This document shows, piece after piece, positions 15,861-39,468 of a stretch of DNA of 64,000 nt. The stretch lies in the NCBI GenBank assembly GCA_000002445.1, contig CP000068.1:1312001-1376000 (forward strand). The letters are read 5' to 3'. The notes beneath the pieces are model-generated. The model ran no database searches. It worked only from the letters and a program-made list of their open reading frames with translations, and was not told where the DNA came from. Within the stretch, counting starts at the first letter, position 1, and the number at the start of each line of letters is the position of its first letter. A program made the position numbers and the translations under genes. Origin of the DNA: Trypanosoma brucei. Taxonomy: Eukaryota.

Positions 15861-18641
15861 CTAATTCGATCTTTGCCTCTTTGCACCACAATTTCCCTCG
15901 TCACAGAGGTTTGAAATCAGGTTTGGTTCCCTCACACTTACTCTGCACAACGCAACTTCCATCTGTTGTATTTTCGCCTTGTCAACGGCTGTGATTTGTG
16001 CACCGGACTTTCTTGACATATCCTCTAGCATCCCCTTAAGTTGTTCAAAGCTCTTGATCCAGTAATTCACTTCTTCGTTGGCTCGATGTATCGCCTTCAT
16101 TGCCCAATCCTTTTCTTTAGCTCTGAAACATTCCGTTTCTTCGCGTTTAGCCTTTACTGCTTCCAGAGCCTTCTTATACTCTCCTTTGCGGGAAATTTCG
16201 TAGTCAAGCTTACTTCGGAGCTTCTGGGTTCTCTGCTCCAACTCGTCAACGTTACGCTTTTCAGTATCTAGTAAGCGGGAAAGCTCTCTCACCTGATCGT
16301 CTTTCTTCTGAATATCGGCAGCGTGCTGCCGCGATAGATCACTAATCTTCTCCATGAGGTTTTCACTGTTCTTTTCAGCTTTCTCCTTTTCATTCTCAGC
16401 GACGTTAATTTTCCTCGTAAGACCTTCCCTCTGCTCTACAAGAAGTTTCTCACTTCCCTCAACACGTGATTCGATTTCCCTCAACTTGAGCTCAAGGTGA
16501 GAACACATGTCCTCGGCGTTTCTTCGCACCTTTTCCAGGTGACTTAGTCTGCGCAGCAGTTCGTCGTTCTTGTTCGTGTATAACACACGATATTCCTCTG
16601 CCACAGCAAGCGTTTTCTCAACTGTCAGTGCGCTATATTGGTCAACAATATCTACAAAAAAACGTGAGAAGTGTTCTAACCAATTCGCCATCCACTGTGA
16701 CAATCTCATTCGGTCTTCAGAGTACAAAGTAGCCTCACGCAAAAGGTTTTCTGTTTCGATGAGTTTGTCAGAAAGAACCTTTTGGTTAGCGGTGCGGTCT
16801 TCATTATTGATATTCTCCCTTTCAATTTCTTTCCCCAGGAGAAAAAGTTGTTCTTTATCTCGTCGTGCACCCTCTTGGAGGTCTAGAATTTCTGCCTCCT
16901 TCGTCCTTAGTTCCTCAACCAATTCCTCTTTTCCCCGTATCAACGTACTTCTTTCAGCTTCCAAACGCAGCCGCGCCTCTGATAGACGTAATATCTCCGT
17001 ATCTTTTTGATGAGTCAACTCCTCAACTTTCTTTTTTAGTAAGTTTGTCTCCTCGTAGAAATGTGTCACTGCAGTATCGATATTGACGACAAGAATGCCG
17101 TGAATATCAAGGTTTTCATCAGCAGACTCTTTAGACAGACTCCACCTGGCAGCCTGTTCTTCGAGCTCAAGCACCTTTACCTGAAGCATGAAGTTATTCA
17201 GCTGCATTTCTTCAGTGGCAGAACGTAGCTGGGTAGAAAATTCAGAACTCTGCATAACCTTGCGATAGAGGTCCTCATTTCTTGCATTAGCTTCACCTAA
17301 CTGACCTGTCAACTTGTCAATTACCCCTCGTCTGGCGTCAATTTCAGACGTAAGATCTTTCGCCTCACGGCGCAGAGAATCAATTTTTTCTTCGTAATCC
17401 ACCCGCATGAGTACCAAATTTTCGTCCTTCGTATCCTGCATACTCTTCACTCGCTGGAATTCGGTCTCCAAGAAACTTTTTGCACTAACGACGCTCTCCA
17501 AATCCATCCTTGTTCGTTCGAGCGCACTTCGAAGCTCTTGAAGATTACTTTCCAATATTGCGGCTCTTCGGCTGCTATCGGTACGTTCTTGTTCAAGACG
17601 GTTCACATCAGCCTTCAGTTGACTGACAGACAGTTCATACTTCCGAGACTCAGCGCACTTCTCTATCACCTGATCGTTTAGCGCCGAAATCTTCGACCTC
17701 AATTCTACAATAACTTCTTGGTGTTTGGAAGAATTTTCAGAAGCATGCTCAAAATCACGACGCATTGTTTCCAGCTCCATCATAAGCAGCTTGTTTCCTT
17801 TTTCGGATTCTCGTAGGTCACAGTTTGCCTTTTCTACACGACCTTTTTCTTCAATGTTGATCAGTTTTGCCGCCTCGATTTGCTGGTTCAGTGTGGAGAC
17901 GGTGTTTTGCAGCTTCTCAATCGTGCTCTTCTGCATTCCTAACTGTACTTCGAGAGACTTTATCTCGTTGTCTTTCACATGACAAACCTCTTCCCACTTG
18001 GATTTTGCTTCCTCCAACTTGAAAACAGTTTCGTCGCGCGTATGCACATCGTTCTGCAATGCCTCGATACGGGAATGTAACAAAGTTATCTTCTTTTCCC
18101 CCTCGTGCGATAATGACTCCAATTTTGTTGTGTGGTCCTTCTCCCTCTGTAACTGCTTCTGAACTTCCTTCAGTGTGACGTTCAACTCCTTGAATTCATC
18201 CGCTAACTTCGAATAAGCAGTCCTTGATTCTTCAAGTTGTCTCTGAATGGTTTCGTTCTCGGTGATCCATTGTTTCTCTGCGTCGCACCACTTGGCTATA
18301 GAAGCATGAGCGTCACGACGAATTTGCTCCTTCTCACATTCAGCCCTAGCCGCGCGCTTCTGCTCAGCAACCAATGCAGATTGTTTTTCGGATAAGTCCT
18401 TTTGCAGGGTGTGACACCTCTCCTCTAATTTTCCCCGCTTCTTGTCGTCGTCCGTATGCATTAACTTTTCTCTACGTAGCTCAGCTTTGTCTTGTTCGAG
18501 AGTAGCTATCTGTGCTTGTTGTAACTTAACTTTTTCCTCAAGCTCACGAGTGTAAGCTTTCTCACGCTGCAGCTGAAACTCCAAATGTTTTTGGGTCCCT
18601 TTTAGCCCCTGTCTGGAATCACCTTTCGCAGGAGACTCCAT
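15861..18641 (-). CDS. hypothetical long coiled-coil protein
   Basis: The 926-aa ORF starts MESPAKGDSRQ. It is continuous heptad coiled-coil rich in E, K, L, Q and R, typical of kinetoplastid cytoskeletal or flagellar proteins. No enzymatic motif. Confidence 0.65.
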   Translation of the reverse strand: MESPAKGDSRQGLKGTQKHLEFQLQREKAYTRELEEKVKLQQAQIATLEQDKAELRREKLMHTDDDKKRGKLEERCHTLQKDLSEKQSALVAEQKRAARAECEKEQIRRDAHASIAKWCDAEKQWITENETIQRQLEESRTAYSKLADEFKELNVTLKEVQKQLQREKDHTTKLESLSHEGEKKITLLHSRIEALQNDVHTRDETVFKLEEAKSKWEEVCHVKDNEIKSLEVQLGMQKSTIEKLQNTVSTLNQQIEAAKLINIEEKGRVEKANCDLRESEKGNKLLMMELETMRRDFEHASENSSKHQEVIVELRSKISALNDQVIEKCAESRKYELSVSQLKADVNRLEQERTDSSRRAAILESNLQELRSALERTRMDLESVVSAKSFLETEFQRVKSMQDTKDENLVLMRVDYEEKIDSLRREAKDLTSEIDARRGVIDKLTGQLGEANARNEDLYRKVMQSSEFSTQLRSATEEMQLNNFMLQVKVLELEEQAARWSLSKESADENLDIHGILVVNIDTAVTHFYEETNLLKKKVEELTHQKDTEILRLSEARLRLEAERSTLIRGKEELVEELRTKEAEILDLQEGARRDKEQLFLLGKEIERENINNEDRTANQKVLSDKLIETENLLREATLYSEDRMRLSQWMANWLEHFSRFFVDIVDQYSALTVEKTLAVAEEYRVLYTNKNDELLRRLSHLEKVRRNAEDMCSHLELKLREIESRVEGSEKLLVEQREGLTRKINVAENEKEKAEKNSENLMEKISDLSRQHAADIQKKDDQVRELSRLLDTEKRNVDELEQRTQKLRSKLDYEISRKGEYKKALEAVKAKREETECFRAKEKDWAMKAIHRANEEVNYWIKSFEQLKGMLEDMSRKSGAQITAVDKAKIQQMEVALCRVSVREPNLISNLCDEGNCGAKRQRSN

Positions 18642-18879: not shown

Positions 18880-19644
18880 TCATTGTGGTTTTTTTTCTAT
18901 AGCACAACCTTTTCCCCTCGAATTCATGTAAAAATTTAAAAACAAAACCAGAAGTGAGGCATTGTACAATAATTGCAGCAGGTTCCACCCTAAAGTAAAC
19001 TGAGTGTCAAGTAACGTGACCAAAATAGCATGAAGAATACAAAGAGAAAACTGCAACATTTGAATCTTGGTTAGCAGAAATTTAAACGGATTCCTATACC
19101 CCAAAGATGTCCAGAGGTAGTGTGAATACATCAAAAAATGAACGGAAGAATTTATCCAAGTCCCAAAAAACGCCGTCCCGTTTGCAAGTCCGTTTCTCAA
19201 CAAAATTCCCCAAATAAGACCAATCGTACAGTGATGATATACGTGCAAGAACGACAGTTGATCCTCTTTTTTCTTGCAAAGTATGAAAACGGTATCCAGC
19301 ATATCAATGTACTTGCTGCAGTAGTGAACGAACATCCAAAACTCTATATCCGGGCAAAATTTACCACTCAGGTTAAAGACGCCATTTTTCAAAGGCGGTG
19401 ACAGGTTAATCGCCATTGCGGCCGATAGGCATATCTGGAGCACGTTGTAAACGACCAACACCCTACTCATGTTTAAGGCGCGCCTGCCCCGCATAATACT
19501 TCTCATGACAAACACGACAAACAAATAAAGTAAATGTCCCAATACTAACGCGTGCCATGAAACCAAAGGATTAAGATATGGGAAAAAACAGAGAGAACCC
19601 ACTCCCTGACATGCCGAAGCATCTCTGCAGTCCATCATGATCAC
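18880..19644 (-). CDS. ELO: Fatty acid elongase (ELO family)
   Basis: The 254-aa ORF carries all four ELO signature boxes: KYIDMLDT (KxxExxDT), LHVYHH (HxxHH), HFLMYSHY (HxxMYxYY) and TKIQMLQF (TxxQxxQ). It also has multiple TM helices. It is the last gene of the minus-strand array. Confidence 0.85.
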   Translation of the reverse strand: MIMMDCRDASACQGVGSLCFFPYLNPLVSWHALVLGHLLYLFVVFVMRSIMRGRRALNMSRVLVVYNVLQICLSAAMAINLSPPLKNGVFNLSGKFCPDIEFWMFVHYCSKYIDMLDTVFILCKKKEDQLSFLHVYHHCTIGLIWGILLRNGLANGTAFFGTWINSSVHFLMYSHYLWTSLGYRNPFKFLLTKIQMLQFSLCILHAILVTLLDTQFTLGWNLLQLLYNASLLVLFLNFYMNSRGKGCAIEKKPQ

Positions 19645-20680
19645 TCTTGCTTTTAATTACTATATGGAAAGATGAAGAAACACAATCAAGAAGTTTTATT
19701 CGAACGTTGCCACACGAAAAAAAAACAGGGTAATACATAAAGTAACTTGAACGATACAGCTACAGGCAATCATTAAGAAACTGAGGGAAGTCATTGTCAC
19801 AGCAATACTGTGGGACTTCCGTTCACTCGGAGCTCCAACCTAATGACGGAGACTCCAAGCTGAATCCGACTTCGATAAAATCATTACGACGGCTGCCCCT
19901 GCTACACAAAACAACTGCAAAATAAACTTTCACCATGCGTTGGATAGACACACCTGCATCCATCGATGTCCCCGACGGAAAGAGTCTAAATATCAGCATC
20001 ATGTATATTACCGCGAAAAAAGAAAAATGAGATCACCCCGGCCACATGAACAGAAGTAACCACAGATAACATATGCATCCCTCCGCCTCCTTGAAAACAG
20101 ACAAATCGTGAAACATACAGAAATTACACCAGGAAGCAGATGAACAGAACCACCAATAACGGTCCAGCTATTGTCAGAGTTGCACCACTTTGGTATGTAG
20201 GCATCATGGACCCTAACCCACTGAACGAATGCTACAATGAGTTTGTTATCACCTGCCGTCGACGACCCACTGAGGTTGCAGAATGTTTTAAGTGTCCACC
20301 TAAAGAAATGTTGAAGATTCAAACAAACACAGTGCTCTGATTCATATATTTGAACACGAAAAAAGATAGCGATATAATTAGAACGCCAACAATAGTCCAC
20401 TGTTACCACAATGAATTAGAAGACAACATAGTTTACACACGAGACAAATGCTTACAAACAAGCATATTTAATTAAAGGGCGTTGAGAAATGGGGAGCAGC
20501 AACAAACAATCACATACGAGCAAGCAACGACACTGTTTTGCTGTTTTTGTTTGGAAAAAATACCAACGTGAAGGTATTTCAAAAATGACAACGAAATGGG
20601 CACCAAACCACACGTATCCGCTACCGAAAGTCAAAAATAAGGTAAGGCGCACAATTTACAAGAAAATAAAATAAATAATT

Positions 20681-20720
20681 CACACACACATATATATATA
20701 TATATGTGTGTGTGTATATT
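20681..20720. repeat. (CA)n(TA)n(TG)n compound microsatellite in the strand-switch region
   Basis: cacacacacatatatatatatatatgtgtgtgtgtatat. Confidence 0.9.
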
Positions 20721-23700
20721 GAACTGTGACTCAATTAAAGGGAAATATATACTTTGAAAGACGAAAACACCGACTACTTGTAGCCATTAGCAATAACATA
20801 AATAACAGCGCCCATGACGCTACGCCCTACATCCAAAAGAGCAAGCAAAAAAAACAGTCACAAAAGACTAGTCACATCCAAGAAAGCCGAGTGGTTGTAA
20901 GAAACAACCGAAAATACACAAGCAGGCCTTTGAAGCTCCTCTTTTCAAAAAAAAAAAGGATTAAAGACGACAAGAATCACCAGGGCACACACAAATTGTT
21001 GTGGGGACGCAACCCGCAACCATCCCCCACCGCCACCTTGTGGTAGGAGTTCGCGCCAAAGCCCATCTCACAATATTTGGGAAGTCCAGCAGCTCTCAGG
21101 CGGTCGCTCCTCGACGCAAGACCCACTAACTCCGGTGGAGGCACCGCAGGAAGCCAGAGCGACCACACACACAAACACACAACCCACCACCTTTGGGACG
21201 CATGCCTCACAAGCCGAGGCGGGAGCTACACTAGCATCTCTAGCCTTTGACGCGCCAAACTTCTCCGTCGCACACCCGAGAGCATGTCACCTACACACGA
21301 TAAATAGCGAGGGACCCGCCAAGCAAACCCGCAAGGCCACCACCCAATGAAGAGTTTCAGCGGGCACACGCAGAAGGTCAAAATACCAAGCATGTTGGGA
21401 GGACCCCCGGCCGCGACGGCGTATGCCAACCCCCGCCACTGCGTCCAGACCAATACGCCTCGCGGAATAACGGAACCCAAGCAACTGGGACAAGAGCATA
21501 TATGATGGGGTGCGACTCGCTAGTGCGGGGTCGATTGCGTGGAATGAAAGGACTTCAAGGCGGGACCGAACCTAGACACCACTTCCCCAGATGCCGAACC
21601 TCGAGGATGCACAAGCAATCGTAAACAGGACGGCGACCACTGCTGAAGAACACTTGACTCCAACACTTGGTTATGGACGGATGGAATAACAACAAGTGTA
21701 TGCCCAATACTCCCAATCTTTCGGACAGTGCAGAACGGTGATGAATCACCCAATGGAAATAGAAAAAAAATGGAGAGAAGACTCCGCAAGTCAGCGAAGG
21801 CTATAAGCAGCATGGACGATAGTATAATCCCGACCCCCGGCCACTCCACGAGAACCATTCCTGGGGGAAAAAGCGACGCCGGTCGACGCGAGGCATCAAG
21901 TTCTCAGAATTTAGGATGAGGATAAAGAGGCATTGGGGAAGAAGGAGAAGCAATATCATCGTCATATCGGGGAAAAAACACAATATACGGAACCACCTCA
22001 ACAATCCAAAAGAGACTCATCCGAACATCTAGTGACGGAAGAAGGTTGCTGGGAATAATCGGCCTTAATGCTTGTCATGGGTTTATTGTCAATTCTGTGC
22101 TGCTCGCAAACGGCAAGATGCTGATAGAAGGAGCAGGGGTAGCGACCAACGGCAAATATGCGCCACCAACGACAGACAAAACTCTCAGATGCCCCGGTAA
22201 AGAACGTGCCAGAGGTTGAGAGGACGCGAAACTCAAACCGTTTCACACGCCGGAGCCGATTGTTGCCACAGGAAGATCGAAATTTCCTCCTTCTGCTGAA
22301 GAAAATGGCGTTTGTGGTGTACCAACTAAAGAACATGGAGGTAAACGGGCTAAACCACATGTAAAAACTACTCAACGGGAATCGAAAATACTGGGGAGCG
22401 TTGGGAAAGTGGAAGTGTGAAGCTGTTGAACTGGCGTTAAGGGAAAGCAAGGGGACTGCTGTCATGGCATCGTCAAAAACTAACAGCGCCCACCTGCGCC
22501 AATTACAAAGCAATGCAGTAGTTGGTCCAAAGGAGATTTGTGGATTCTGTTGACCGTTGGTTGCGTATACAAAAGGAAAAGGTTTCTGCGCCAACGTTCG
22601 GCAGCAGAATCCATAACTCAGTTGATTGGAGACGCAACTTCGTACGAACCGAATGTACTCAGCACGGTCAAGCTAACTCTACACTCGTGAGTTTGGACCC
22701 ATGGAGAGTGGTGACGCAATTCGAGTGCCTGAGAAGTTATCTCCTAACCTCCAAATTATGTGGTGGGTAAGAAACTTTCCACCAAACAAGATAGCGAGAG
22801 TCAGTACAAACCAACGAGTTTTGGGGAAATCTCACATGACCGTGCCGTGTGGCAAAAAGAACGGTGTCGGGCTCCATTTTATTCAAAATTATGACGAAGG
22901 GGCTGAGGGATCAACCGGACGGAATACTGGACATACAACGTTGTTTCTTTGTGGACTATATGATACTCGTACGCAGGAACCTGAACGGGTGAAACCTGGA
23001 GGTGCGCTACAACAACCGGTAGGCTACACCACCTCGTGGTTTCAAAGCCGTTTAAAGAGAGATCTGTGCAGAAAACTAAATACATTCCGCCTCTACTGGT
23101 GTTACGAAACCTACTAGGTACTATAGTGGTCAGTGAAAAAGATAGACAAGGCGGAGGCGCCGCATCTGCTGTGTCTCACCCTGCAATCTATCGGAAGAAC
23201 ACCAAAACGAACACAAAGGGTATCTGAGGAGTTAGGTGGGGGTGATGAAACCGTGCGCGGTATCCTCACCCTAGTGGAGCCAAGCGAAAAATTATTAGGG
23301 ACACTCAATTTGGGATTGATGCCAGCACTGCGAAAGCGCTTGAGAAAGACATGGTCAGTCTCCACGACCTCCAAATGATGAAAACACTGAAGGGAGGTCG
23401 CAGGGACGAGTGATGTCAAATGCGTCATGAAGGATGGTGAGGTTCTCCAACTTACGTAGGTTCTTTACCAAACATTACTGTAACGAGGATGAGAGAACCC
23501 TCAAATGTTCGTACAAATGTTTGGGGTGAAGAAACGAGGAAAAAGAGAATACACAAAGACGAATCCATACCGGAAACGGGAGAAAATGAGTATAGAACAT
23601 ATGTTGATAGATCCGCGCACCTCATTCATTGTTTCTTTTTTTGATAAACATGCTTGGGGAAACGGTTCTCGGGCCTAGAATGTGGAAAATTGCACCCCGC

Positions 23701-24449
23701 TGATGAGCACTGCCATGCTCACCGAACCCACATTATTTCTAACATTTGATGCCTTATTTTTTTTTTTTTGGCTTGACAGATCTCGAAACATCTCTATAAT
23801 TTATCTTCTTATTGAAAGCATCCAACATTAGCCCCCTAAACAGACTGAGGGGTCCTTGCCCCATAGAAACAAGTCCTGAATTTTAAAGGGTGAGTTCCTT
23901 GGATACTGTCCCCCATCAGTTTTGGGAATGCCTCACTTGCCTTTACCCGAATGCACCGCGTAAAAATTAGTGGACGTTGTGCATGATGATGACCGTTCTC
24001 TTTTTACACGCGATTGGGTTTTCAATGTACCCAATCACTATGTATGAAGCGTGCCACAACCATGTTTTGGTATCCGCGAATTTTTAACGCACAGCACTCT
24101 TCCGCTGCCAAGTAAGTCTCCTAAAATAGGCAGAAGACTACCATATCCTGGTGAAGCTTCTTCTCTAAGGCGATCCGCTTCGGCTCGGAGAGACCCCCAG
24201 TGTTCCATTGAGCTCCATGAATGACAGGACGAGGATTCCGTTCTACACCTCCCCTAAGTAGTAGTAGAAGCCTATGTATCCCAATCGAAGCGCGCTCGCA
24301 CGTGCGGAGGAGCAGTCTAATATATTTCTTCCCCCCTAAGTGCCGATACTGCTGCTTGCTCCTTCTCTGATCGCCGTCAGCTTCTTGCCCACCAAAATTA
24401 TCTCTGACAGGGTAGAATGCGGGCTATTGGCTTCCTTCTGGACGGAGCA

Positions 24450-24950
24450 CTAGACGCTGGCACCATGATGAGATGGGCGGTGTAGGCAGGGACGTTACTG
24501 TATCAGTTTCCGCGGCTACCCTTCACCCGTGTGCTTTGCGCGGGCGGTCGCTACACCGGCCCTTTTTATGTTATGCATTGACGGCCGGCCTCGGTAGCGC
24601 TCGTTCACTTGCTGCAGTGGAGCCCCGATGTGTTCCGCCGGCGCTGCCTCCAGCTGTGCTGTTACGGTGAAGTGGAGGGGCGCGTGGTTGGGTCGGCTTG
24701 GAGTTTTCGGGGGGTGCGCGCAGCACTTTCTTGTTCTCCGGCTGTGAGTGACTGGTTGGAGTCGGGGTTTTGCGGTGTAGGTATTTGCATAGTTCATCGG
24801 AGGCCCCGCGTGGCTATGGTGACGCGAACCTCTGGGCCCCCTGTCGGTTAGAGCGGTACCGTCTGGGAGGAGCCGCCCGCATTGTCTCGGTGGGGGCAAG
24901 GGCCCCTTCTTAACCACGTCTAAGGAGACGCAGTGGTTACTCGGCCGTCG
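24450..24950. other. GC-rich, G-skewed island inside the strand-switch region
   Basis: The local GC content is clearly above that of the surrounding AT/GT-rich sequence (GGGCGGTGTAGGCAGGGACG...GCGCGGGCGGTCGCTACACCGGCCC). ORFs overlap it on both strands (24473-24670 +, 24516-24917 -), which looks like a by-product of the GC richness. It could be a promoter element or an unannotated structured RNA. Confidence 0.4.
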
Positions 24951-27900
24951 CAGGTCGTGTGCCGCTATTGCATTGCTTGTTACTTTGTCCTTTCATGCGG
25001 TGAGAGGTGGATAATGCTACGCCTTACGGTGGGGTGTCGCTGCTTCGGAAGTCTATTCTGTTGATTGTTGTCGACGACTCAGCGAGTGGGCGTTTATTGT
25101 CGAAACATAAAGTGACTCTGCTGTCAGTGCTTCTGCTCGTGTATTTGCCGTTTCAGGTATGGTAACAGATGGAACTGACTGTCATATTCCCGCGTCAGGG
25201 GAACAAGCTGTAACTTCGCGTTCGGGCGCTGTATTCCATGTTTTAGTTGTCGTAACATGTTTGTATATGCTTGTATGTGTTACGTGTTCATCATTCAGGT
25301 TTCGCCTCGAACCATCGGTTGCTGTCTAGGGGTCGCATCTCCGCTTTACTCGACAACTCTCTATTGTTCGGTAGCAAAGAGTGGACTGGGATGGTCTTCG
25401 TGATCGGGCTGTTAATTGCTTAGGCACGCCTCGAAGTTACAGCAGACGAGATAGTGAGATGAGGTGTGTGTGCTGTGTCTTACTGATGTGTGCAAGGGAT
25501 TTGTGCTAAACAAAAAAATATATGTACTAATTCAGGTAATATTACCTACTCGAGCATTGCGATTTGGGTGAGATTGCTGCGGATGAATTTGTTGTCGCAC
25601 TTTACTTGGAGGAGTTTCCGGAAACTGTCTGTTCCAAAGTTGTTTTCTCTGCAGTAAAAGGTGGAGGATCCTTGTACCTACAGGTCCGATGCGGCTGTTC
25701 AGAACGTTTGTAGCCCAATGGGCTTCGTCCAGCAACACAGTGTAGAAACGAATAGCATGTTGTCCCTCCATCTGGTCAACACGAAAGCCATACCCCGCGT
25801 TTCTGCCTCGGTGCTGAGATAGTGCGGTCATGCGTTACGCAATATGAGATATGCCCGTTTTTAAAATTATGAATGTCCTCGATAAGATAATCACTCGATT
25901 GTATCGCTCGTGTGGCCGCTGGCGATGGATGCCAAGATTCCCTACTGGACCTTCAAATAGTAATATAAGAAGCTCACTGGACCGTATTGGGGGCAACGAA
26001 GATATCTTGTATCAGGGAGGATATGGGTTTGTTAACACGCGCGATTTCACAATCCTTCTACCAAACCGAAGCGTCGTGAAGCTGATTTCCCCAAACAACA
26101 GTGGATGATGTTCAACTTAAAGCTCTCTCTGTCTCATTACCGCTATCTGTGTTCAATGAGCGGTGTCATCTGTGCTGTGGCTATGTTACCTGTGTAATCA
26201 TACCACCTGATGGTACGGAGTTCGTACGCACATCCTCATGCTGGATGTACCTGTTGGTATTGGAACGTTTTTGTGACAAATGCAGGGGGGGGCTTGCTAA
26301 ACCTCTATATGATCTCCCTCTCCATGTTACGGGATATTTTTAGATTAATGGTACATGAAAAGTGAGGTAAGAGCCTTTGGAGTTCACAACAAATCGTTTC
26401 TTTCAAAGTTCCAATACTACTTAATTGCATTCCGTAAAAATAAAAATTCGTTTTTCGTATAAACTATTAGGTTTTAGTGTGTGGGTGTGTATGGGGAGAG
26501 CGAAGCATTTTGTGTAGCGACTTTAAGAAAAACTTCAGGTAAATGGGCATACAGTATGTTGGAAAGAGAATATCGGCCTTCGAAAAGGCTCTTCAATAGT
26601 GTTAGTTCTTTCACTCACCTTTTCCTTTGTTGGTAGAACTGGTGATTCCAAGTTGAATAGTTGTAGACGGATGTTTGAAGTGTATTTACATATTCCCTTT
26701 GGAGTTTCTGTGGGTGTGTGAGGTTTCTGGCATTCTGAAACCACACATTAGGTGGTTAATTACGTTAAAGCAGCATCCGGCCGATGCGATTGTCCACCAC
26801 AGAAATTCTAAGGCGTAATGTGGTGGTGGAGTGTTGGCTGCTAGACGGCGTTTCGGCCTTTGTTTGATGTTTGCAACCTCGTTGGTGTGGGAAAGGGCGT
26901 GTGAGTGACACATATCCCTTGAATTATATATTTTTTGCCGTCCGCATTATCTCCGCTACGCGTTGCATGCACACCCGTGTGGTGTTTATTTTTTTTTATG
27001 TTGTGTTATATAATAATGGTGGTTTCTGACGAGTTTGTTGTTTGTAGTGTGACCCTTAATTTTTCTTAGATCACGATTTTTTGACAACATTCCGAAGAAC
27101 AATTACTCCCTTACCGCACATACTTCATTACTGATTGAATCCACTCCAAGCTATCAAAACGATACGCAAATATGTGTGTGGAATTTGTTTTGTGTGTTGT
27201 GGCTTTCTGCGGTGTCAGGTTCACAGGTTTCTAAAACTTCGTTCGTGGGAGCGTTGCGTCGTCAGAAAGTTCGCATTGATCCAAGTGAAGTGTGGGGTTT
27301 TGTTGATGATATGTAGGTTGTATTTTTGGCTCTAACAAATACTACCTTTCATTTTTGTTAGGTATTTGTTCGGCCAATTAAACGACGATGCTATTGCAGT
27401 CTGTACCTCACACCCACTTCTTTACCCCTAGTTGCATTTAAGAGCCCAGTGCTTGTAGACCAGACAACAGGTCCCATTTTGACGAGAAACAAGTCGTTAG
27501 TGATTTTTTTTTGTGTGGGACTACCCGTGAATTTTGGAAGAGAGGATAGTTAATGCCTCACTGTTAGAGTTGGTTCTGTTGCATTCTGGAGCAGCCCTGT
27601 TTTGTCAATTCTTCCATTTCCTTCCTGCAGTTATCGTTTTTGTCTGTTCAATTATCCGACGCAGCTGTTCGTTCACGGTCCTTCAATATATAAATATATA
27701 TATATGAAGTAACATACTTTTGAGGATGTACTTTGCTGCTTCGAATCATCTGCATGTTAGGCATGCTTTTTCACATGTTCTCTATTTCGTTCGTGGAGGA
27801 ACGAAGCTACCTTTTCCTCTTTAGCAGCACAGTTCAAAGCCAAGTGAGAAAATACGCATTAAAATACAAAACCCATTAGAAAGCAGCTGAAAACGAAAAG

Positions 27901-29100
27901 TACACCTTTGTGCCTCTGCTGATGGTCACATTATTCTTCACATTTACTGATAGTTCAATTTTATTATTGTGGTGTGATTGCAGGTGAAGCACCCCTTCAA
28001 GCCATTTTATGAGTGATTACACGGAAAAAAACATTATTAACACCAAATTGAGGGAAAAACCTGTGTGTGCCGTACCCTTCAGTGGCTGTACCATCCACTC
28101 TTGATTTGGTAGTGTAGTGGGTATAAAAAGAGTATTTATGACTAATTTCCACTCAACGTATTTCTTGGGTGGTTAAATTTATTTATTTTTCTTTGGACTG
28201 TATTTGTGGCTTCACGTCAATCTTTATTTTTAGCAGAGGACGCAACGAGAACTTGGTCTGGTTCGGAAGAAGATGTTTTTCTCCTACTTGTGGCTGTGCT
28301 TTTTGAGATATTGAAGTTTTTTCTTTTCAAAGATTGAGATGAGGAAATTTATTGCAAACAATGTTTAACATTCTGAAAGGTTATTTTGTTCATCTTTCCG
28401 GAAAGGGGAAGAGTGATTTTGGCCCTTAATCGACCGTGCTTGTGCTCCCAATGGGCGGATGATAGCAAAAATAAGAGACTTATGTTAAGAAATCATGAGA
28501 GGTGGTTCGAAGAAGAAGTTGAAAGTGACTAACTCATTTAAACGATGGAGCTGCTACACATCCTCTCATATCATGTTTTGTAGATGTCAGAGGGTGCATG
28601 TTACTTGATAGAACGTGAATACACTGAAACCTTTAAGCTTCTGTTTGAGGCATCGGAGAACGGCGTGGTTATAGGATCCTCTGTAATTCGCGGGGTACCA
28701 GTAACAAAAACGTTCGGTTCCATTGCCTCAAGCTTGTTACATACAATACTCGAATACCATTTCAAGGAAGTAAATGCCTCACTTGTCAAAATATACTTCG
28801 TGTTGAACCTTTTCCCTTTCCCCTTGGTGGATGCTTGTTCTTCAAAAGGGATATCGCGGGACGTATGCTTGGTTTTATGTTAGTTTGTGCGGTGTACGGA
28901 AATATCTAATATGGAATATGTCGCCCTCTTTGGCATTGTTCCCATTGTTATTTTGTTTACGCGGTTGCGCATTTTGTCTGATTCCTTGTCAACCTTAGTA
29001 CTGTATTTTCCTTTAGTTCCTGCAGCAACATTTGTGTGTGTGTGTGTGTGTGGCATTGATTCATTATGGTACACTGTGTGTTGGTTGAGCATTCTTCGTT

Positions 29101-29150
29101 TTAGTTGGTGTCTGCGTTTTGTTTGGGATTGTTTACTTTGTTCTTTGTAG
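29101..29150 (+). promoter_or_regulatory. polypyrimidine tract with AG; candidate trans-splice acceptor region for the first GRESAG4 copy
   Basis: ttgtttgggattgtttactttgttctttgtAG lies about 50 bp upstream of the ORF. The same element is present upstream of copy 2 at about 35636-35685. This is the usual kinetoplastid SL-addition signal architecture. Confidence 0.45.
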
Positions 29151-29201
29151 GACGTTTAGTTTACCTGTTTCACTAGCAGTACCGGCCAAAGTTTCCAAAT
29201 T

Positions 29202-32200
29202 ATGATTTCCATTCATCAGTCGATTCTCTTCGGTCGCGATGTTTCACGGGTCCGCATGGAGAATAGTCCCGTGCCGTGTATCAACCAGTTTCGCTGCCGC
29301 CTTACCATGTCATCGTTGTCGCTACTTTTGGTGTTTCTTGTGGTGGTTATGCCGCCGGTGGAAGCTTTGGATAATATAACGGTAAAGGTTTACTCACTTC
29401 TGTATCACCCTTTTGTTGGGAGGAGACTAATCGATTCTATGAATGCCGGTTTCAACGCGTCAATGGCAGCCCGTCAATGGACCGTTGCCCCAGGCATCAA
29501 TGTTGAAGTTATCCACCCTGCATCGTATAGAATTCCGGGTCCGAGGTTCTTGCAGAGGGCAATAAATGATAACAAGGATGAATTCTTTGTTGTGGTGGGA
29601 CCGATGGGTGACGGTCAGTTGGCTGCCTCTCGTTCATTCTTGCAGAAGGAAAATTTGGTTGCATTTGCTCCATCCACTGGGGCAAGCTCTGTGCGCGGTT
29701 GGAGTCCCAACATCTACTTCCTGCGTGTGTCACCCACTGTCGAGCTTATTGCATTGATGCGTTTTGCTGTAACTCACCTGCGTTTACTACGGATCGGCTT
29801 CATGTACCTGCAGGGTCTCACCTTTGGGGATAGTGAATATGAGGTGGCCATAAAACTAATGTCTCATTTGGGACGCGAGTTATGTGGTGTTTTCACAGTG
29901 GCAAGCTCGCATGGCAAAGGTGCAGCTGACTCCGATTTTGATGCCGTGTGGGACAAGTTCGTGGTGACCCGTCCACAGGGTGTGATCATGTTTGCTCCAC
30001 CAGCAAAAGATGTGGTAAGATTTGTAGTAAAGATGCTGAATGACAGTCGTACCCAAGACGCCTACTTTCTTGCTTCTTCGGTACTCGAATTGACAATTGC
30101 CTCTTGGAGCGGCAATATTGAGGCAGCCAATACAGCACTTGATCTCGGGCAGATTGTGCTCTCGCGCACGAATCCGCTGGCGACGGACACACAATACCAA
30201 GCAATCAGGCGTTTTCAGGACGATGCGAGATCATACCTGAGTGCTAATCCGGGCGTAACTCTCTTCAGCGGCGCAGACGACTTCGAGCATCATTATGTGG
30301 ATGGGAAGCTTATGGTGTATGGGTGGATCGTTGGTGAGGTGCTGTCACAGGCCCTGAGGAGTCGTGCCTGGATTAAGGACAGGGAGACCTTCAAGAAGTC
30401 TCTGTATAGTCAACGTCGGTACGTCGTCGATGAGCTTGTGTTTGGTGACTTTGGTGGTGAGTGTGAGGGTACAGCAGGTAAGCGCGGTGCTGTGTGTAAC
30501 TGTAATCAGGGAGGAAACGTAGTGTACATCAACGTTGCTAGGAGGGATAATGTCTTGGAGGTGATACATGATGGACAGGTAGTTGTCGATTCATCACTCT
30601 GTTACCACGACGAGGTTCGGTTGCATTCCCCTGTGAATGGTTTATTGGTATTCATGCAGGATGATCCGGTTGCGCAAAATGCGGCTGAGGAAATATATGA
30701 TGGCGCCATTCCTCTCACTGGTGATGGCCGTCTGGGGCGAACTGATCGTTTTTTCTTACATATGCTGACATCAGAAACGGCTGAAGCATCCTCAGAGTTA
30801 GAGTCAGAATTGGGCACCAGGGCAGTGACGGCTGTGTTTGGAGTTGCCGATGATGCTATGCTATCCCTACAAACTACTGCTTTCATTGACCCCATCTCTC
30901 TCCTCCCGGGGTTACCTCATAGAGGGAGGAAAGTTATTTACCTATCTCCGACACTGGAGCAGCAGCTATTCGCGCTGGTAAAATATTTTGTCGGGTCAGG
31001 TTCTACGGTAGTGCACGCTGTCGTCTGCCGTGGTGATGTGGTTTCGATTGAAAGATTGCTTTATCTGATGTTGATGACTTTTGGCGGGCACATGGGAACA
31101 GTGGTAGGGCCTGATAGCAGTACAGATCTGGAAGGTTCGATGCCAGAAACCGGTGATGTGCTTGTCATAGGCCTGTCCAAGGACGACGTTGCCGTGGTAG
31201 CGTCTCACCTGGATCGTAACCCGGATGTTCGTGTCGCTGTCCTGTTCTTTGACGTAGCCCTACTATACATTGAGTTTGTCAAAGCTTTCAAGAGCAGTTC
31301 AAGCGGTGGTCGGCTTCTTTTTGCAACGAGTCTGCCTCACTGGGCAGAGGCTAACTCGACTTCGGCTACTGTACAGAAGTTTCACGCGGCAGTGCCTGAT
31401 TCGCCACGGTGGACACCTTTGTCACTGCTTGGTTTCGCGACCGGAAGATTCATTCAAACGCTGCTCTTTCATATGGACAAAGTGACACCGGATTCTATAA
31501 TCAATGCAATATATACTCTCTCGGTCGTAAACAGCGACGACATGCGGTATGGTCCGTTCGTGGAGGAGCGATGCCCTTCAACCAAAGATGCGCCGGAGGG
31601 CGGCGACCACTTCTGTGGTAAGAATTATGGTGCGAGGCGACTTTCTGTGTGGTCGATGGACCGTGCGCTGAACGCTTCGGTGGCACCGCTGACATCGGGC
31701 GCAACGCCGTCTTTGGTGTACATAGACCCGTATTCGAAGGTGTTGTCAGGCGGCCGACTTGCCGGTGTCATCGTTGGAGTTCTTTTCATTTTACTGTTGC
31801 TTGTTGCTCTTTTGCTAGTGCTTCTTTGTCTGCGCCGCAGCGCACGCGACAATGACAGCGCGCCCAAGGAGCCAGCGGACCCTGTGACGCTAATTTTTAC
31901 AGATGTAGAAAGCAGTACTGCACAATGGGCAGCACATCCCGAGCTGATGCCCGATGCTGTGGCCGCGCATCACCGTTTGATTCGCTCGCTAATCACCCAC
32001 TACAGGTGTTATGAAGTGAAGACGGTTGGGGACTCATTCATGATCGCGTGCAAGAGTGCATTTGCCGCATCGAGTCTTGCCCAAGGCCTGCAGCAACGGT
32101 TTTTGTCTGCAGACTGGGGAACCAGTGCCTTCGACGAGTCCTATCGTGAGTTTGAGCAGCAGCGTGCAGATGACGACAATGAATACAAACCGCCGTCCGC

Positions 32201-32933
32201 GCGCCTCGACCCCGAAGTGTACCGGTCTCTCTGGAAAGGTCTACGCGTACGTATCGGGATACACACCGGACTGTGCGAAATCCGACAAGATGAAGTGACG
32301 AAGGGCTACGACTACTACGGGAAGGTGACAGACATGGCCGCGCGGACGGAGAGCGTTGCGAACGGTGGCCAGGTAGTACTGACGCAAGCAACGTACTTTG
32401 CACTGAGCACAGCAGAGCGTGAACAGTTCGATGTGGTCTCCCTTGGCCGCATACCACTTGCTGGTGCGCCCCAACCTATGGAAGTATACCAGTTGAACGC
32501 GGTGCCCGGCCGTACCTTCGCTGCTCTTCGCCTTGACCGCGAGTTTGGCGACGACTTTGAAGATAGAATGAGTACCTCCACTGGAGACTCGAGTTCTCTC
32601 CGTAGCGGGATGAATGGAACAACGCAGATGATTGCAAGTTGCCTGCAGGCTGTGCTAGGCACTTTCACTGCAGCACAGCGACAGAAACTGCTGGTGCCTT
32701 TGTGCGAACGGTGGCGTGTCACGCTTCCCAGGACCGCACAGCTAACATGGGACGAGGGCTTTTGTGAAGATGTGATTCGTCGGATTTCAGTCAAGGTCGG
32801 TCGTGTCGTTGACCTCTGTGCAAACAGCGGTGGTGAGCGTACCGTCAGTACGCTGAGAAGTGCGTCTGTGATTATAATGTCGAACCGGCTTCGGGAATTT
32901 GAGGCAGAGGCAACCCAGAGCCCTGAAGCTTAG
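29202..32933 (+). CDS. GRESAG4: Receptor-type adenylate cyclase (GRESAG4 family), copy 1
   Basis: The 1243-aa ORF has a probable signal peptide (MSSLSLLLVFLVVVMPPVEA; the true start is likely at about 29307). It has a large extracellular domain and a single TM (LAGVIVGVLFILLLLVALLLVLLCL). The C-terminal class III cyclase catalytic domain carries LIFTDVESST, KTVGDSFMIA, GLRVRIGIHTG and YYGKVTDMAARTESVANGGQVV. Confidence 0.9.
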   Translation: MISIHQSILFGRDVSRVRMENSPVPCINQFRCRLTMSSLSLLLVFLVVVMPPVEALDNITVKVYSLLYHPFVGRRLIDSMNAGFNASMAARQWTVAPGINVEVIHPASYRIPGPRFLQRAINDNKDEFFVVVGPMGDGQLAASRSFLQKENLVAFAPSTGASSVRGWSPNIYFLRVSPTVELIALMRFAVTHLRLLRIGFMYLQGLTFGDSEYEVAIKLMSHLGRELCGVFTVASSHGKGAADSDFDAVWDKFVVTRPQGVIMFAPPAKDVVRFVVKMLNDSRTQDAYFLASSVLELTIASWSGNIEAANTALDLGQIVLSRTNPLATDTQYQAIRRFQDDARSYLSANPGVTLFSGADDFEHHYVDGKLMVYGWIVGEVLSQALRSRAWIKDRETFKKSLYSQRRYVVDELVFGDFGGECEGTAGKRGAVCNCNQGGNVVYINVARRDNVLEVIHDGQVVVDSSLCYHDEVRLHSPVNGLLVFMQDDPVAQNAAEEIYDGAIPLTGDGRLGRTDRFFLHMLTSETAEASSELESELGTRAVTAVFGVADDAMLSLQTTAFIDPISLLPGLPHRGRKVIYLSPTLEQQLFALVKYFVGSGSTVVHAVVCRGDVVSIERLLYLMLMTFGGHMGTVVGPDSSTDLEGSMPETGDVLVIGLSKDDVAVVASHLDRNPDVRVAVLFFDVALLYIEFVKAFKSSSSGGRLLFATSLPHWAEANSTSATVQKFHAAVPDSPRWTPLSLLGFATGRFIQTLLFHMDKVTPDSIINAIYTLSVVNSDDMRYGPFVEERCPSTKDAPEGGDHFCGKNYGARRLSVWSMDRALNASVAPLTSGATPSLVYIDPYSKVLSGGRLAGVIVGVLFILLLLVALLLVLLCLRRSARDNDSAPKEPADPVTLIFTDVESSTAQWAAHPELMPDAVAAHHRLIRSLITHYRCYEVKTVGDSFMIACKSAFAASSLAQGLQQRFLSADWGTSAFDESYREFEQQRADDDNEYKPPSARLDPEVYRSLWKGLRVRIGIHTGLCEIRQDEVTKGYDYYGKVTDMAARTESVANGGQVVLTQATYFALSTAEREQFDVVSLGRIPLAGAPQPMEVYQLNAVPGRTFAALRLDREFGDDFEDRMSTSTGDSSSLRSGMNGTTQMIASCLQAVLGTFTAAQRQKLLVPLCERWRVTLPRTAQLTWDEGFCEDVIRRISVKVGRVVDLCANSGGERTVSTLRSASVIIMSNRLREFEAEATQSPEA

Positions 32934-35736
32934 CGAAATAATGCACACTGCAGTTTTCTTTGTCTCACTTGGTTTTCCACTTTTCGTGTATATACACATA
33001 GCTTATTACATTCGCAATGCGCAATAGTTGACTAGTTGTTTCATCTACAATTTGTATACTCATACCTTAAATGGGGGCAGGGACATGTACCCGCCTCTTC
33101 TTGATTTCTTATTAACTGATTCACTTCTTTTCTGTCTATTTTATTTTCGACGTGGCAATGAGCAAATGTGTCTAGTCCCGTTCCTTCTTCCTTTCTTTTT
33201 TTCGTGAAGAATGCTGAAGCGGCAAGCAACCTCGTCAGGGTATTTGCTGGTTTTCGGTTCTGTTCTTCCGTAATCGTTTTCCCTCTCTATCCGTTGTGGC
33301 ATGTTTACTGGGAAGATGTTCAACTCCTTTCTCTAACGTTCCCCCGTCGCCACCGCTTCTCATCTACCTTTGATTTTTTTATTTTTTGGAGCAGGTGTTG
33401 CTAATAGTATGCGTGTTCGAGATCTGTCATTATTATTGTTATTATCATCACTGCTTTGTTGATTCCTGTTTGTAATCCCACTGCATTGTGACGCAATATC
33501 TCCAACTGAACCTTTGCAAGTGTCCATGCAACACCGTCGTGTTTGCTTCTGCATCCGACTGTTTTACCTCACCTGTTACTCCTTTCTTTCTTTTGGGGTT
33601 GTCAGTTATTAGTGGGGCGATGCCGCTCGTGGCCGTTGTAGCGTTGTTTTTTTTTCCTATGCCGCATGTACCTCCATAACGTCCCTAGTGGTTCAAAGGT
33701 ACGGTAAACTGATCCTGTCCATCAGAGGAGAGGGGAGAGCGAGGTGTGGTTGCTGCTTGAACCGCTGCACATAAATTACCAGTGAGGCGCATAAATATCG
33801 GGGTGATGACACTCCGTGTTGCGTGTGCATATGTCACTTTTGTTGGCTTCTGCTTGCGTGAACTCACAAGGAACCGCTGCTGTTTTCATCCCGGTTGTGG
33901 CGTCTGGTGTGTTACCTCCTCCTTTTTTTTATTTTTGCAGGGGGGTGGGTGCCACTACACGGCAGCTCTCGTCCATTGGTCTGTAGTTGTGCGATTTTAT
34001 TTGATATTCGCTGCGGTTGTGGTGCTGTCAGCACTGCTATTGGCAGGTAACAAAACGTTAGGTGCGCATTCTTCCTCTATGAGATCAAAAAGTTGTTTAC
34101 TACAGTATTTTGAATTTTGGGGGAGTGGGGAGAGGTACGTAAGGCAAATAAAAGAAAAGTGAGTTATTGGTAATTTAAGTCTCGCTGGTCCAATGTGTTG
34201 GGGTTCTCAGTTTATCTCTTTCTGTGGTATCTAGGTGTTAATAACAACAGAAGAGGGTTATCAAGAAAACAGGCTGACGTCACCACTATGAACACTCCCT
34301 TCACTTTAATGCAGGCACTGCATGGAAAGGTTAAAAGTATGGAGGGAATTTGTTTATTAATCCCACTGTACTGTGTTGGTGGATGAATTGTGAAAAACAT
34401 TATGCGTGTTCTTACCTTTTTTTGCTGACTCTCACAATTCCGTGCGGTGCAGTGGAGTTCATTACGATTGATGAGACAGCTTAATGCTAAATGATCTTAT
34501 CATAAAATGTTATAATTTCATTTTTTTTTCGTTTCTCAAATTATAATTTTCATTTTCCATGGAAATATCGTCTTTTTTTGTTTAAAAAAAATGAAGCAAA
34601 TGTTATAACATCCTGCTTTATTATTATTGTTGTTGTTGTTTTTGAACCACTGAATCAACGTGTGCCGGATGCTTTGTCATGTGTTTCACATTTTTTTTGG
34701 GGGGGTGGTTAAATTTATTTTTTTTCTTTGGACTGTATTTGTGGCTTCACGTTAATCTTTATTTTTAGCAGAGGACGCAACGAGAACTTGGTCTGGTTCG
34801 GAAGAAGATGTTTTTCTCCTACTTGTGGCTGTGCTTTTTGAGATATTGAAGTTTTTTCTTTTCAAAGATTGAGATGAGGAAATTTATTGCAAACAATGTT
34901 TAACATTCTGAAAGGTTATTTTGTTCATCTTTCCGGAAAGGGGAAGAGTGATTTTGGCCCTTAATCGACCGTGCTTGTGCTCCCAATGGGCGGATGATAG
35001 CAAAAATAAGAGACTTATGTTAAGAAATCATGAGAGGTGGTTCGAAGAAGAAGTTGAAAGTGACTAACTCATTTAAACGATGGAGCTGCTACACATCCTC
35101 TCATATCATGTTTTGTAGATGTCAGAGGGTGCATGTTACTTGATAGAACGTGAATACACTGAAACCTTTAAGCTTCTGTTTGAGGCATCGGAGAACGGCG
35201 TGGTTATAGGATCCTCTGTAATTCGCGGGGTACCAGTAACAAAAACGTTCGGTTCCATTGCCTCAAGCTTGTTACATACAATACTCGAATACCATTTCAA
35301 GGAAGTAAATGCCTCACTTGTCAAAATATACTTCGTGTTGAGCCTTTTCCCTTTCCCCTTGGTGGATGCTTGTTCTTCAAAAGGGATATCGCGGGACGTA
35401 TGCTTGGTTTTATGTTAGTTTGTGCGGTGTACGGAAATATCTAATATGGAATATGTCGCCCTCTTTGGCATTGTTCCCATTGTTATTTTGTTTACACGGT
35501 TGCGCATTTTGTCTGATTCCTTGTCAACCTTAGTACTGTATTTTCCTTTAGTTCCTGCAGCAACATTTGTGTGTGTGTGTGTGTGTGGCATTGATTCATT
35601 ATGGTACACTGTGTGTTGGTTGAGCATTCTTCGTTTTAGTTGGTGTCTGCGTTTTGTTTGGGATTGTTTACTTTGTTCTTTGTAGGACGTTTAGTTTACC
35701 TGTTTCACTAGCAGTACCGGCCAAAGTTTCCAAATT

Positions 35737-38700: not shown

Positions 38701-39468
38701 GCAGATGACGACAATGAATACAAACCGCCGTCCGCGCGCCTCGACCCCGAAGTGTACCGGTCTCTCTGGAAAGGTCTACGCGTACGTATCGGGATACACA
38801 CCGGACTGTGCGAAATCCGACAAGATGAAGTGACGAAGGGCTACGACTACTACGGGAAGGTGACAGACATGGCCGCGCGGACGGAGAGCGTTGCGAACGG
38901 TGGCCAGGTAGTACTGACGCAAGCAACGTACTTTGCACTGAGCACAGCAGAGCGTGAACAGTTCGATGTGGTCTCCCTTGGCCGCATACCACTTGCTGGT
39001 GCGCCCCAACCTATGGAAGTATACCAGTTGAACGCGGTGCCCGGCCGTACCTTCGCTGCTCTTCGCCTTGACCGCGAGTTTGGCGACGACTTTGAAGATA
39101 GAATGAGTACCTCCACTGGAGACTCGAGTTCTCTCCGTAGCGGGATGAATGGAACAACGCAGATGATTGCAAGTTGCCTGCAGGCTGTGCTAGGCACTTT
39201 CACTGCAGCACAGCGACAGAAACTGCTGGTGCCTTTGTGCGAACGGTGGCGTGTCACGCTTCCCAGGACCGCACAGCTAACATGGGACGAGGGCTTTTGT
39301 GAAGATGTGATTCGTCGGATTTCAGTCAAGGTCGGTCGTGTCGTTGACCTCTGTGCAAACAGCGGTGGTGAGCGTACCGTCAGTACGCTGAGAAGTGCGT
39401 CTGTGATTATAATGTCGAACCGGCTTCGGGAATTTGAGGCAGAGGCAACCCAGAGCCCTGAAGCTTAG
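35737..39468 (+). CDS. GRESAG4: Receptor-type adenylate cyclase (GRESAG4 family), copy 2
   Basis: This copy is over 99% identical to copy 1 at the protein level. The substitutions cluster in the ectodomain (SGNIEAAN to SSDIEAVN, TLFSG to TIFSG, YVVDE to YAVDE, GKRGA to GERGA, ARRDN to AGRDN, GRTDR to GQTDR). The catalytic domain is identical. Confidence 0.9.
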   Translation: MISIHQSILFGRDVSRVRMENSPVPCINQFRCRLTMSSLSLLLVFLVVVMPPVEALDNITVKVYSLLYHPFVGRRLIDSMNAGFNASMAARQWTVAPGINVEVIHPASYRIPGPRFLQRAINDNKDEFFVVVGPMGDGQLAASRSFLQKENLVAFAPSTGASSVRGWSPNIYFLRVSPTVELIALMRFAVTHLRLLRIGFMYLQGLTFGDSEYEVAIKLMSHLGRELCGVFTVASSHGKGAADSDFDAVWDKFVVTRPQGVIMFAPPAKDVVRFVVKMLNDSRTQDAYFLASSVLELTIASWSSDIEAVNTALDLGQIVLSRTNPLATDTQYQAIRRFQDDARSYLSANPGVTIFSGADDFEHHYVDGKLMVYGWIVGEVLSQALRSRAWIKDRETFKKSLYSQRRYAVDELVFGDFGGECEGTAGERGAVCNCNQGGNVVYINVAGRDNVLEVIHDGQVVVDSSLCYHDEVRLHSPVNGLLVFMQDDPVAQNAAEEIYDGAIPLTGDGRLGQTDRFFLHMLTSETAEASSELESELGTRAVTAVFGVADDAMLSLQTTAFIDPISLLPGLPHRGRKVIYLSPTLEQQLFALVKYFVGSGSTVVHAVVCRGDVVSIERLLYLMLMTFGGHMGTVVGPDSSTDLEGSMPETGDVLVIGLSKDDVAVVASHLDRNPDVRVAVLFFDVALLYIEFVKAFKSSSSGGRLLFATSLPHWAEANSTSATVQKFHAAVPDSPRWTPLSLLGFATGRFIQTLLFHMDKVTPDSIINAIYTLSVVNSDDMRYGPFVEERCPSTKDAPEGGDHFCGKNYGARRLSVWSMDRALNASVAPLTSGATPSLVYIDPYSKVLSGGRLAGVIVGVLFILLLLVALLLVLLCLRRSARDNDSAPKEPADPVTLIFTDVESSTAQWAAHPELMPDAVAAHHRLIRSLITHYRCYEVKTVGDSFMIACKSAFAASSLAQGLQQRFLSADWGTSAFDESYREFEQQRADDDNEYKPPSARLDPEVYRSLWKGLRVRIGIHTGLCEIRQDEVTKGYDYYGKVTDMAARTESVANGGQVVLTQATYFALSTAEREQFDVVSLGRIPLAGAPQPMEVYQLNAVPGRTFAALRLDREFGDDFEDRMSTSTGDSSSLRSGMNGTTQMIASCLQAVLGTFTAAQRQKLLVPLCERWRVTLPRTAQLTWDEGFCEDVIRRISVKVGRVVDLCANSGGERTVSTLRSASVIIMSNRLREFEAEATQSPEA

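Follow-up and report, generated by a model that had tools for sequence, protein, structure and literature searches.

Introduction

The RNA polymerase II (pol II) transcription start regions of Trypanosoma brucei were reportedly described by Siegel et al. in 2009. This study concerns a GC-rich island in a 64,000-bp stretch of T. brucei chromosome 5 (the window; NCBI GenBank assembly GCA_000002445.1, contig CP000068.1, positions 1,312,001 to 1,376,000 of the forward strand, numbered here from its first letter). The island, referred to as the right island, covers 550 bp at 24416-24965 on the plus strand (chromosome 5, 1,336,416-1,336,965). It is probably the upstream GC-rich part of the pol II start region of the rightward transcription unit Tb927.5.4540 to Tb927.5.4610, and one of two mirror-image promoter blocks that face away from each other. 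Most likely it is a clear, if not unusual, case of a promoter region of a kind already known, and not a new RNA gene or repeat.

The definition of a pol II promoter in trypanosomes is unsettled, with GT-rich words, a sequence-specific core of 75 bp, and chromatin alone standing as competing views. G- and T-rich words of the coding strand are most enriched in the first fifth of the start regions (Wedel 2017, PMC5579346). According to the summaries of Cordon-Obras 2022 given in PMC11796357 and PMC13532274, divergent regions of 5-10 kb hold two oppositely oriented unidirectional core promoters; the core described there is 75 bp long and has three critical motifs, and poly-T and GTGT elements lie outside its essential part. 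In the SPARC study these 75-bp core motifs were missing under most pol II peaks, and promoters may therefore be heterogeneous; the present locus is not listed in the supplementary data of that study. Enrichment of 5'-triphosphate ends was found at every divergent unit, though not at the resolution of a single island (Kolev 2010). Two more distant systems also bear on the locus: the CpG-island promoters of mammals, and the ingi/RIME/L1Tc retroposons, which carry an internal pol II promoter, Pr77 (PMC5814959, PMC3708506).

The locus described here is a clean test case for these views. Its two mirror-image blocks hold the extremes of all four bases in 64 kb, and one of them contains GT words while the other does not. 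Should the island without words prove able to drive transcription in one direction, composition and strand asymmetry would suffice, and promoters might be predictable from sequence across trypanosomes. If it does not, the island just marks the edge of a transcription unit by its composition.

Results and Discussion

The segment 24450-24950, singled out in the initial annotation as a G-rich GC island, has a GC content of 0.619, against a mean of 0.461 in the window (standard deviation 0.050, 500-bp windows). This is the 99.9th percentile and confirms that the segment stands well above its surroundings. The 500-bp window with the highest GC content in the whole 64 kb is 24466-24965 (0.622), and the 64-kb maximum of G (0.364, 500-bp window from 24404) and minimum of A (0.114, 500-bp window from 24503) also fall in the right island. 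Over its full length the island has a GC content of 0.62, made up of 0.35 G and 0.26 C, with 0.25 T and 0.13 A, and it is therefore rich in both G and T on the plus strand, along which transcription runs rightward. No other place in the 64 kb combines a GC content of at least 0.56 with a G+T content of at least 0.58. The G-over-C skew noted in the initial annotation is real. Its strength is moderate (+0.15 overall): in 200-bp windows it is just +0.06 to +0.09 over 24400-24699 and rises to +0.24 to +0.27 at 24600-24799 and 24700-24899. The excess of T over A is the stronger of the two asymmetries (AT skew -0.33 overall, down to -0.50). The sequence of the island is complex. Its longest homopolymers are G6 and C5, and no tandem repeats were found in it. 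The G-densest stretch, 25 nt at 24690-24714 on the plus strand, has a G4Hunter score of at least 1.5 but is no canonical quadruplex motif of the G3 type; such motifs were absent at loop lengths of 1-7 nt, and the right island has none at 1-12 nt either.

The position of the island coincides with the switch in strand composition. The cumulative G+T skew of the 64 kb drops to about 22000, stays flat from about 22000 to 24500 with its global minimum at 24397, and then rises steeply. The left boundary of the island was set by this minimum together with the end of a hypervariable retroposon 5' end at 24415, which is discussed below. The plus-strand asymmetry begins exactly at the right island. Long open reading frames (ORFs) are found on the minus strand only up to 19644 and on the plus strand only from 29202. 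The strand-switch region that is free of them thus spans 19645-29201, and the earlier placement of the island in the middle of that region holds approximately.

A second island lies at 20998-21497 (chromosome 5, 1,332,998-1,333,497). It has a GC content of 0.60, ranks second in GC among the 500-bp windows of the 64 kb, and holds the 64-kb maximum of C and minimum of T. It is C- and A-rich on the plus strand, that is, G- and T-rich on the minus strand, which is the strand of leftward transcription. Nowhere else in the 64 kb does a GC content of at least 0.56 coincide with a G+T content of at most 0.42. The divergent region thus contains two mirror-image islands 3.5 kb apart, which show no homology to each other beyond composition. 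In the mirror island a minus-strand G-dense stretch at 21007-21039 (G4Hunter score of at least 1.5) is the counterpart of that at 24690-24714, and a GT-repeat element, GTGTGTTTGTGTGTGTGG on the minus strand, occupies 21163-21182. Between the islands lies a spacer (21561-23756) of obscure origin, over which the cumulative G+T skew is flat; six-frame Pfam searches found no protein domain in it, and it contains no repeats.

Published transcript maps place both islands upstream of the first trans-spliced transcripts. The window corresponds to 1,312,001-1,376,000 of Tb927_05 (v4), chromosome 5 of strain TREU927, and an offset of 1,312,000 was used for mapping. At this offset the poly(A) sites and 3' untranslated region lengths of Kolev 2010 Table S13 match the ORF ends exactly for all four genes compared. 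Kolev 2010 Table S14 classes Tb927.5.4530 to Tb927.5.4010 (minus strand) and Tb927.5.4540 to Tb927.5.4610 (plus strand) as "Divergent" pol II units; therefore, the right island sits inside a start region already published as divergent. In the leftward cluster the first trans-spliced transcript on record is Tb5.NT.87 (19749-20336, minus strand), and that of the rightward cluster is Tb5.NT.88 (25640-27639, plus strand), which is followed by a second novel transcript, Tb5.NT.89 (27799-29029, plus strand), ending just upstream of the first annotated gene (all Kolev 2010 Table S7). The starts of all three are immediately preceded by AG. The distance to the first spliced transcript is nearly the same on the two sides, with 675 bp from the end of the right island to the start of Tb5.NT.88 and 662 bp from the end of the mirror island to the start of Tb5.NT.87. 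Primary transcripts must begin upstream of the first splice acceptors, and it is on this upstream side that the islands sit.

That the right island is the site of initiation, or adjoins it, and that the island is its cause, are inferences; the mechanism proposed below draws on the literature about T. brucei start regions. The island resembles the GT-rich start regions in lying in a divergent strand-switch region, in having G over C and T over A on the coding strand, and in having a mirrored partner. The architecture of two opposed islands also resembles the pair of unidirectional core promoters summarised from Cordon-Obras 2022, the promoter activity of the islands here being putative. In the proposed mechanism, a GC-rich block of complex sequence with G and T on the non-template strand would give rise to a patch of open chromatin marked by H2A.Z/H2B.V, at which pol II and promoter-defining factors (SPARC) could load. 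The G-rich non-template strand, prone to R-loops and perhaps to G-quadruplexes, would then bias productive transcription rightward, and the primary transcript would extend for about 0.7 kb before meeting its first splice acceptor at 25640. The mirror island (20998-21497) would act likewise for the leftward unit.

Several observations weigh against this reading. The 157 coding-strand-enriched 10-mers of Wedel 2017 (Dataset EV1) were counted on both strands across the window, and 24001-25000 has no exact match on either strand; with one mismatch allowed, the right island has five plus-strand matches and a single minus-strand match. The mirror island contains 10 exact matches, all on the minus strand at 21163-21173, which correspond to its GT repeat. 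Beyond the right island, in the downstream direction, the plus strand has matches at 25271, 25463, 26285 (a G8 run) and 26985-27189. The G8 run (26285-26292) and two T9 runs (26989-26997 and 27504-27512, plus strand) all lie inside Tb5.NT.88. Words of the GT type are thus found downstream of the island, and the active start region could be there instead. GC-rich DNA lacking homopolymers is also not expected to exclude nucleosomes alone. Divergence from T. b. gambiense is 2.5% in the right island and 2.6% in the mirror island, compared with 3.2% in the region and 1.1% in neighbouring coding sequence. The right island therefore diverges at the level of the non-coding background, more than twice the coding rate, and shows no sign of constraint on its sequence. 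The support from other species, described below, is compositional only and comes from one region in three species, and the T. cruzi island is not the GC maximum of its locus, where coding GC is higher.

The right island therefore has the strand asymmetry of a start region yet is no GT-rich element in the narrow sense. Unlike the GT-rich promoters of Wedel 2017, it is a complex sequence of 62% GC with neither the 157 words nor a long homopolymer, and the GT repeat is found in its mirror partner instead. That poly-T and GTGT elements lie outside the essential core in the summaries of Cordon-Obras 2022 fits a promoter block that lacks them. The initial annotation had proposed a core promoter or nucleosome-excluding element. 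The first half of this proposal, taken at the level of a promoter region, is the best supported of the identities offered, though indirectly, by position, orientation, the mirror partner and the transcript maps. Exclusion of nucleosomes by the sequence itself is unsupported because the island lacks long homopolymers and the published 10-mers made of G runs, T runs or GT repeats.

The same region was compared in related trypanosomes. In T. cruzi the gene order is kept, with the cyclase on one side and the elongase and 926-amino-acid (aa) genes on the other; in T. theileri a different large gene takes the place of the cyclase. BLASTN and TBLASTX searches of the T. brucei region against those of T. 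cruzi and T. theileri gave nothing significant. In the region of three other species a compact GC island with an inversion of the G+T skew inside it nevertheless recurs, immediately upstream of the elongase gene. In T. cruzi it covers 8100-8500 of locus L004 (58-69% GC) and has the inversion in its middle. In T. rangeli it covers 1-900 of locus L007 (62-74% GC) and contains the top two GC windows of the locus. In T. theileri it covers 8150-8750 of locus L003 (52-59% GC against a background of 40%). For the T. theileri and T. rangeli islands the annotations give low-complexity "proteins" (288 and 204 aa, respectively), which look spurious. The cyclase-side halves of T. brucei, T. cruzi and T. 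rangeli are alike in composition (G 0.34-0.35, C 0.23-0.30, T 0.21-0.31, A 0.12-0.15). The only k-mer common to the cyclase-side halves of the four species is the 7-mer GGGGCGC (P of about 0.01 before correction for six tests), which is a weak lead. The T. vivax contig (L006) ends 121 bp upstream of the elongase gene, and the T. rangeli contig (L007) ends 1131 bp upstream of it; given these ends, the strand-switch region may be hard to assemble.

The complex GC-rich block without GT words, the mirror symmetry, and the compositional recurrence at the same strand-switch region elsewhere go beyond standard knowledge. They suggest, from one locus, a wider idea that we put forward tentatively, as conceivable rather than probable. 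Sharply bounded GC-rich blocks of about 0.5 kb and of complex sequence, with G and T on the non-template strand and about 0.7 kb upstream of the first splice acceptor, might be a hallmark by which pol II core promoters of trypanosomes stand out in composition. Such a hallmark would be kept in composition and not in sequence, would be distinct from the low-complexity GT-rich 10-mers, and would be common to T. brucei, T. cruzi, T. rangeli and T. theileri. At the present locus, an ancestral compact bidirectional island, still compact beside the elongase gene in the other three species, might have been split into two half-islands when about 2.9 kb of DNA, with an ingi/RIME retroposon in it, was inserted.

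Among the other explanations, the one that survives best is that the island is a passive compositional footprint at the edge of a transcription unit, left by transcription- or R-loop-associated mutation bias, GC-biased gene conversion or the activity of replication origins at strand-switch regions, and has no causal role. The neutral-level divergence and the lack of a common motif in the two islands beyond composition favour this, as does the recurrence of composition without sequence conservation in T. cruzi and T. theileri, which is what a mutational process would leave behind. The slope of the skew also stays similar for kilobases downstream of the island. The enrichment in GC, however, is sharply limited to about 550 bp; GC content falls to 43% in the next 3 kb, though the G+T skew continues there. 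In addition, synthetic G/T-rich sequences suffice for directional transcription in T. brucei (Wedel 2017, PMC5579346), and such composition can therefore be causal. A purely passive origin is rated as unlikely, and the promoter-block interpretation is preferred.

Mammalian CpG-island promoters offer a further comparison for a promoter block of this kind. Like them, the right island is about 0.5 kb long, with a GC content above 0.6, a CpG observed/expected ratio of 0.97 and a G-rich non-template strand. Dispersed divergent initiation and the lack of a focused TATA-like motif are counted as further common features in this analogy (drawn by Kolev 2010; Ginno 2013 as cited in PMC6294496). Unlike that of mammals, transcription in T. 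brucei is polycistronic. In length, GC content and CpG ratio the island exceeds the formal thresholds for a CpG island (over 200-500 bp, GC above 0.55, observed/expected above 0.6), but its CpG ratio does not discriminate it from its surroundings; CpG is undepleted throughout the window (observed/expected about 0.9), and the island is therefore not defined by escape from methylation. The R-loop signal of T. brucei did not follow positive GC skew (PMC6294496).

A degenerate ingi/RIME-type retroposon fragment, of the class without long terminal repeats, adjoins the right island on its left side (23757-24415, minus strand). Its recognisable parts are a T13 run at 23757-23769, which fits the poly(A) tail of a retroposon, and a 2A-like motif followed by the N-terminus of an endonuclease, both of which lie between 24330 and about 24050 when read downward. 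Its 5' end is presumably at about 24330-24415. The minus-strand translation downward from 24330 is KKYIRLLLRTCERASIGIHRLLLLLRGGVERNPRPVIHGAQWNTGGLSEPKRIALEKKLHQDMVVFCLF*ETYLAAEECCALKIRGYQ, and its counterpart in T. b. gambiense is LLLLSGDVEQNPRP. In ingi/L1Tc the published 2A-like motif, GD(V/I)ExNPGP, stands just upstream of the endonuclease domain (PMC3708506); it reads RGGVERNPRP in the window and SGDVEQNPRP in T. b. gambiense. The downstream part aligned with a sequence taken as the endonuclease N-terminus of human L1, with a BLASTP E value of 1e-4. The translation has no database homologue and no sequence match in PDB, and no Pfam match was obtained in six frames; the identification therefore rests on the motif, the alignment and the tail. 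The 5' end gave no match to a hepatitis delta virus-like ribozyme or to any other Rfam family.

The mismatches with T. b. gambiense cluster in this fragment, at 24321-24415 (27 in 95 bp) and 24033-24066 (12 in 34 bp), and the 500-bp bin 24000-24499 has 42 of them, compared with 7-15 in the other bins from 19500 to 27500. In both clusters T. equiperdum is identical to the window. Since the mismatches stop abruptly at 24415, the retroposon 5' end is placed there. The hypervariable clusters may have arisen by gene conversion with other ingi/RIME copies. The fragment points leftward into the spacer, so that its 5' end, the expected place of Pr77, adjoins the island. The degenerate RIME/ingi 5' end that the initial annotation offered as one identity of the island thus exists, at about 23757-24415; it lies beside the island and on the opposite strand. 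The island itself is G-rich on the strand opposite to the element, and no 2A motif, endonuclease or poly(A) feature was found in any frame of 24416-24965.

With such an element adjoining it at 24415, the island might itself be a relic, that is, part of a degenerate ingi/L1Tc-related mobile element or a decayed gene, GC-rich by chance and left by the retroposon insertion. The obscure origin of the spacer between the islands would fit this, as would a "hypothetical protein" of 149 aa annotated over the junction in T. b. gambiense (3987-4436 of locus L002, corresponding to 24206-24655 of the window), whose ORF covers the antisense strand of the retroposon and the first 240 bp of the island. Searches with this ORF, however, returned a single match, 99% identical, on a 4.3-kb Logan read-archive contig, which was taken as the same locus. 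Its frame is not fully open in the T. brucei window, where an ORF of 65 aa starting with ATG is left (24473-24670), and the annotation is probably a spurious gene call. A 133-aa ORF on the minus strand of the island gave only two marginal low-complexity matches when searched with HMMER against 1.84 billion representative proteins. No Pfam domain was found in six frames of the island, and a tblastn search with the neighbouring genes and the ORFs of the orthologous regions showed no similarity to it. Membership in a dispersed repeat, which the initial annotation had set out beforehand as a reason to abandon its view of the island, was not found either: self-comparison revealed no second copy within the 64 kb, no paralogous ORFs were found, and the inverted and direct repeats within the island are not above chance. 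An origin as a relic would also leave the mirror island and the exact coincidence with the skew switch unexplained, and we consider it very improbable.

That the island encodes a small non-coding RNA, or a structured segment of a long one, is more doubtful still. Polyadenylated non-coding RNAs without the spliced leader do map to divergent start regions of T. brucei (Kolev 2010), and the island, being GC-rich, has a low absolute folding energy. Its 501-nt fold, however, showed no excess stability over dinucleotide shuffles (plus strand, z = -0.27; minus strand, z = -1.20). Both of the complementary segments reported in the initial annotation are present (at 24583 and 24638), yet their best duplex (-11.7 kcal/mol) is bulged and is equalled or beaten by 11% of the 11-mers of the island, which is not above chance. 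ARAGORN found no transfer RNA or transfer-messenger RNA in the island, and a search of the whole window against Rfam 15 at gathering scores placed no family there. At E values up to 10 with permissive filters, over 19.5-29.3 kb and 24.0-25.3 kb, only chance microRNA-like matches at 20678-20720 appeared. That place holds a palindromic (CA)n(TA)n(TG)n microsatellite, and the matches, which are on both strands with E values of 0.016-5, are far under the gathering scores. No novel transcript of Kolev 2010 Table S7 covers the island, the nearest being those at 19749-20336 and 25640-27639. Together with the neutral-level divergence, these results speak against the small structured RNA that had been proposed.

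A short protein-coding gene is the least credible alternative. Each strand does have ORFs, one of 133 aa on the minus strand and two of 65 and 80 aa on the plus strand, and the 149-aa plus-strand ORF is annotated in T. b. gambiense. At 62% GC, however, both strands are expected to have open frames, and the translations, in which Arg, Pro and Gly abound, have neither Pfam matches nor homologues. The 149-aa frame is not open throughout in the window, and each of two overlapping ORFs, one per strand, has 7 amino-acid changes relative to T. b. gambiense. These results agree with the earlier judgement that the segment has no protein-like ORF.

Flanking genes and duplications

The first annotated gene of the leftward cluster is Tb927.5.4530 (18880-19638, minus strand), a fatty-acid elongase of the ELO family (Pfam; Kolev 2010 Tables S13 and S14). 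The 926-aa protein encoded next to it (15861-18641) is identical to XP_845122 of TREU927, and differs by 1 residue from that of T. equiperdum and by 13 from that of T. b. gambiense. The rightward cluster begins with Tb927.5.4540 (29202-32933, plus strand), a receptor-type adenylate cyclase of the GRESAG4 type (Pfam; Kolev 2010 Tables S6 and S14), and a second such cyclase follows in tandem at 35737-39468 on the plus strand (Pfam). The whole GRESAG4 unit is duplicated in tandem over 6.3 kb at 99.6% identity (28167-34444 and 34703-40982), and the copies take in about 1 kb of sequence ahead of the start codon; since this duplication begins at 28167, the unique sequence of the strand-switch region ends at 28166. 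A second duplication of 3.9 kb (43995-47937 and 51061-55001, 95.3% identical) contains ORFs of 820 and 818 aa that have no Pfam match. Further to the right, a chromosome-internal ORF of 377 aa (62081-63214, plus strand) matches VSG_B, a trypanosomal VSG domain, with an E value of 1.7e-30.

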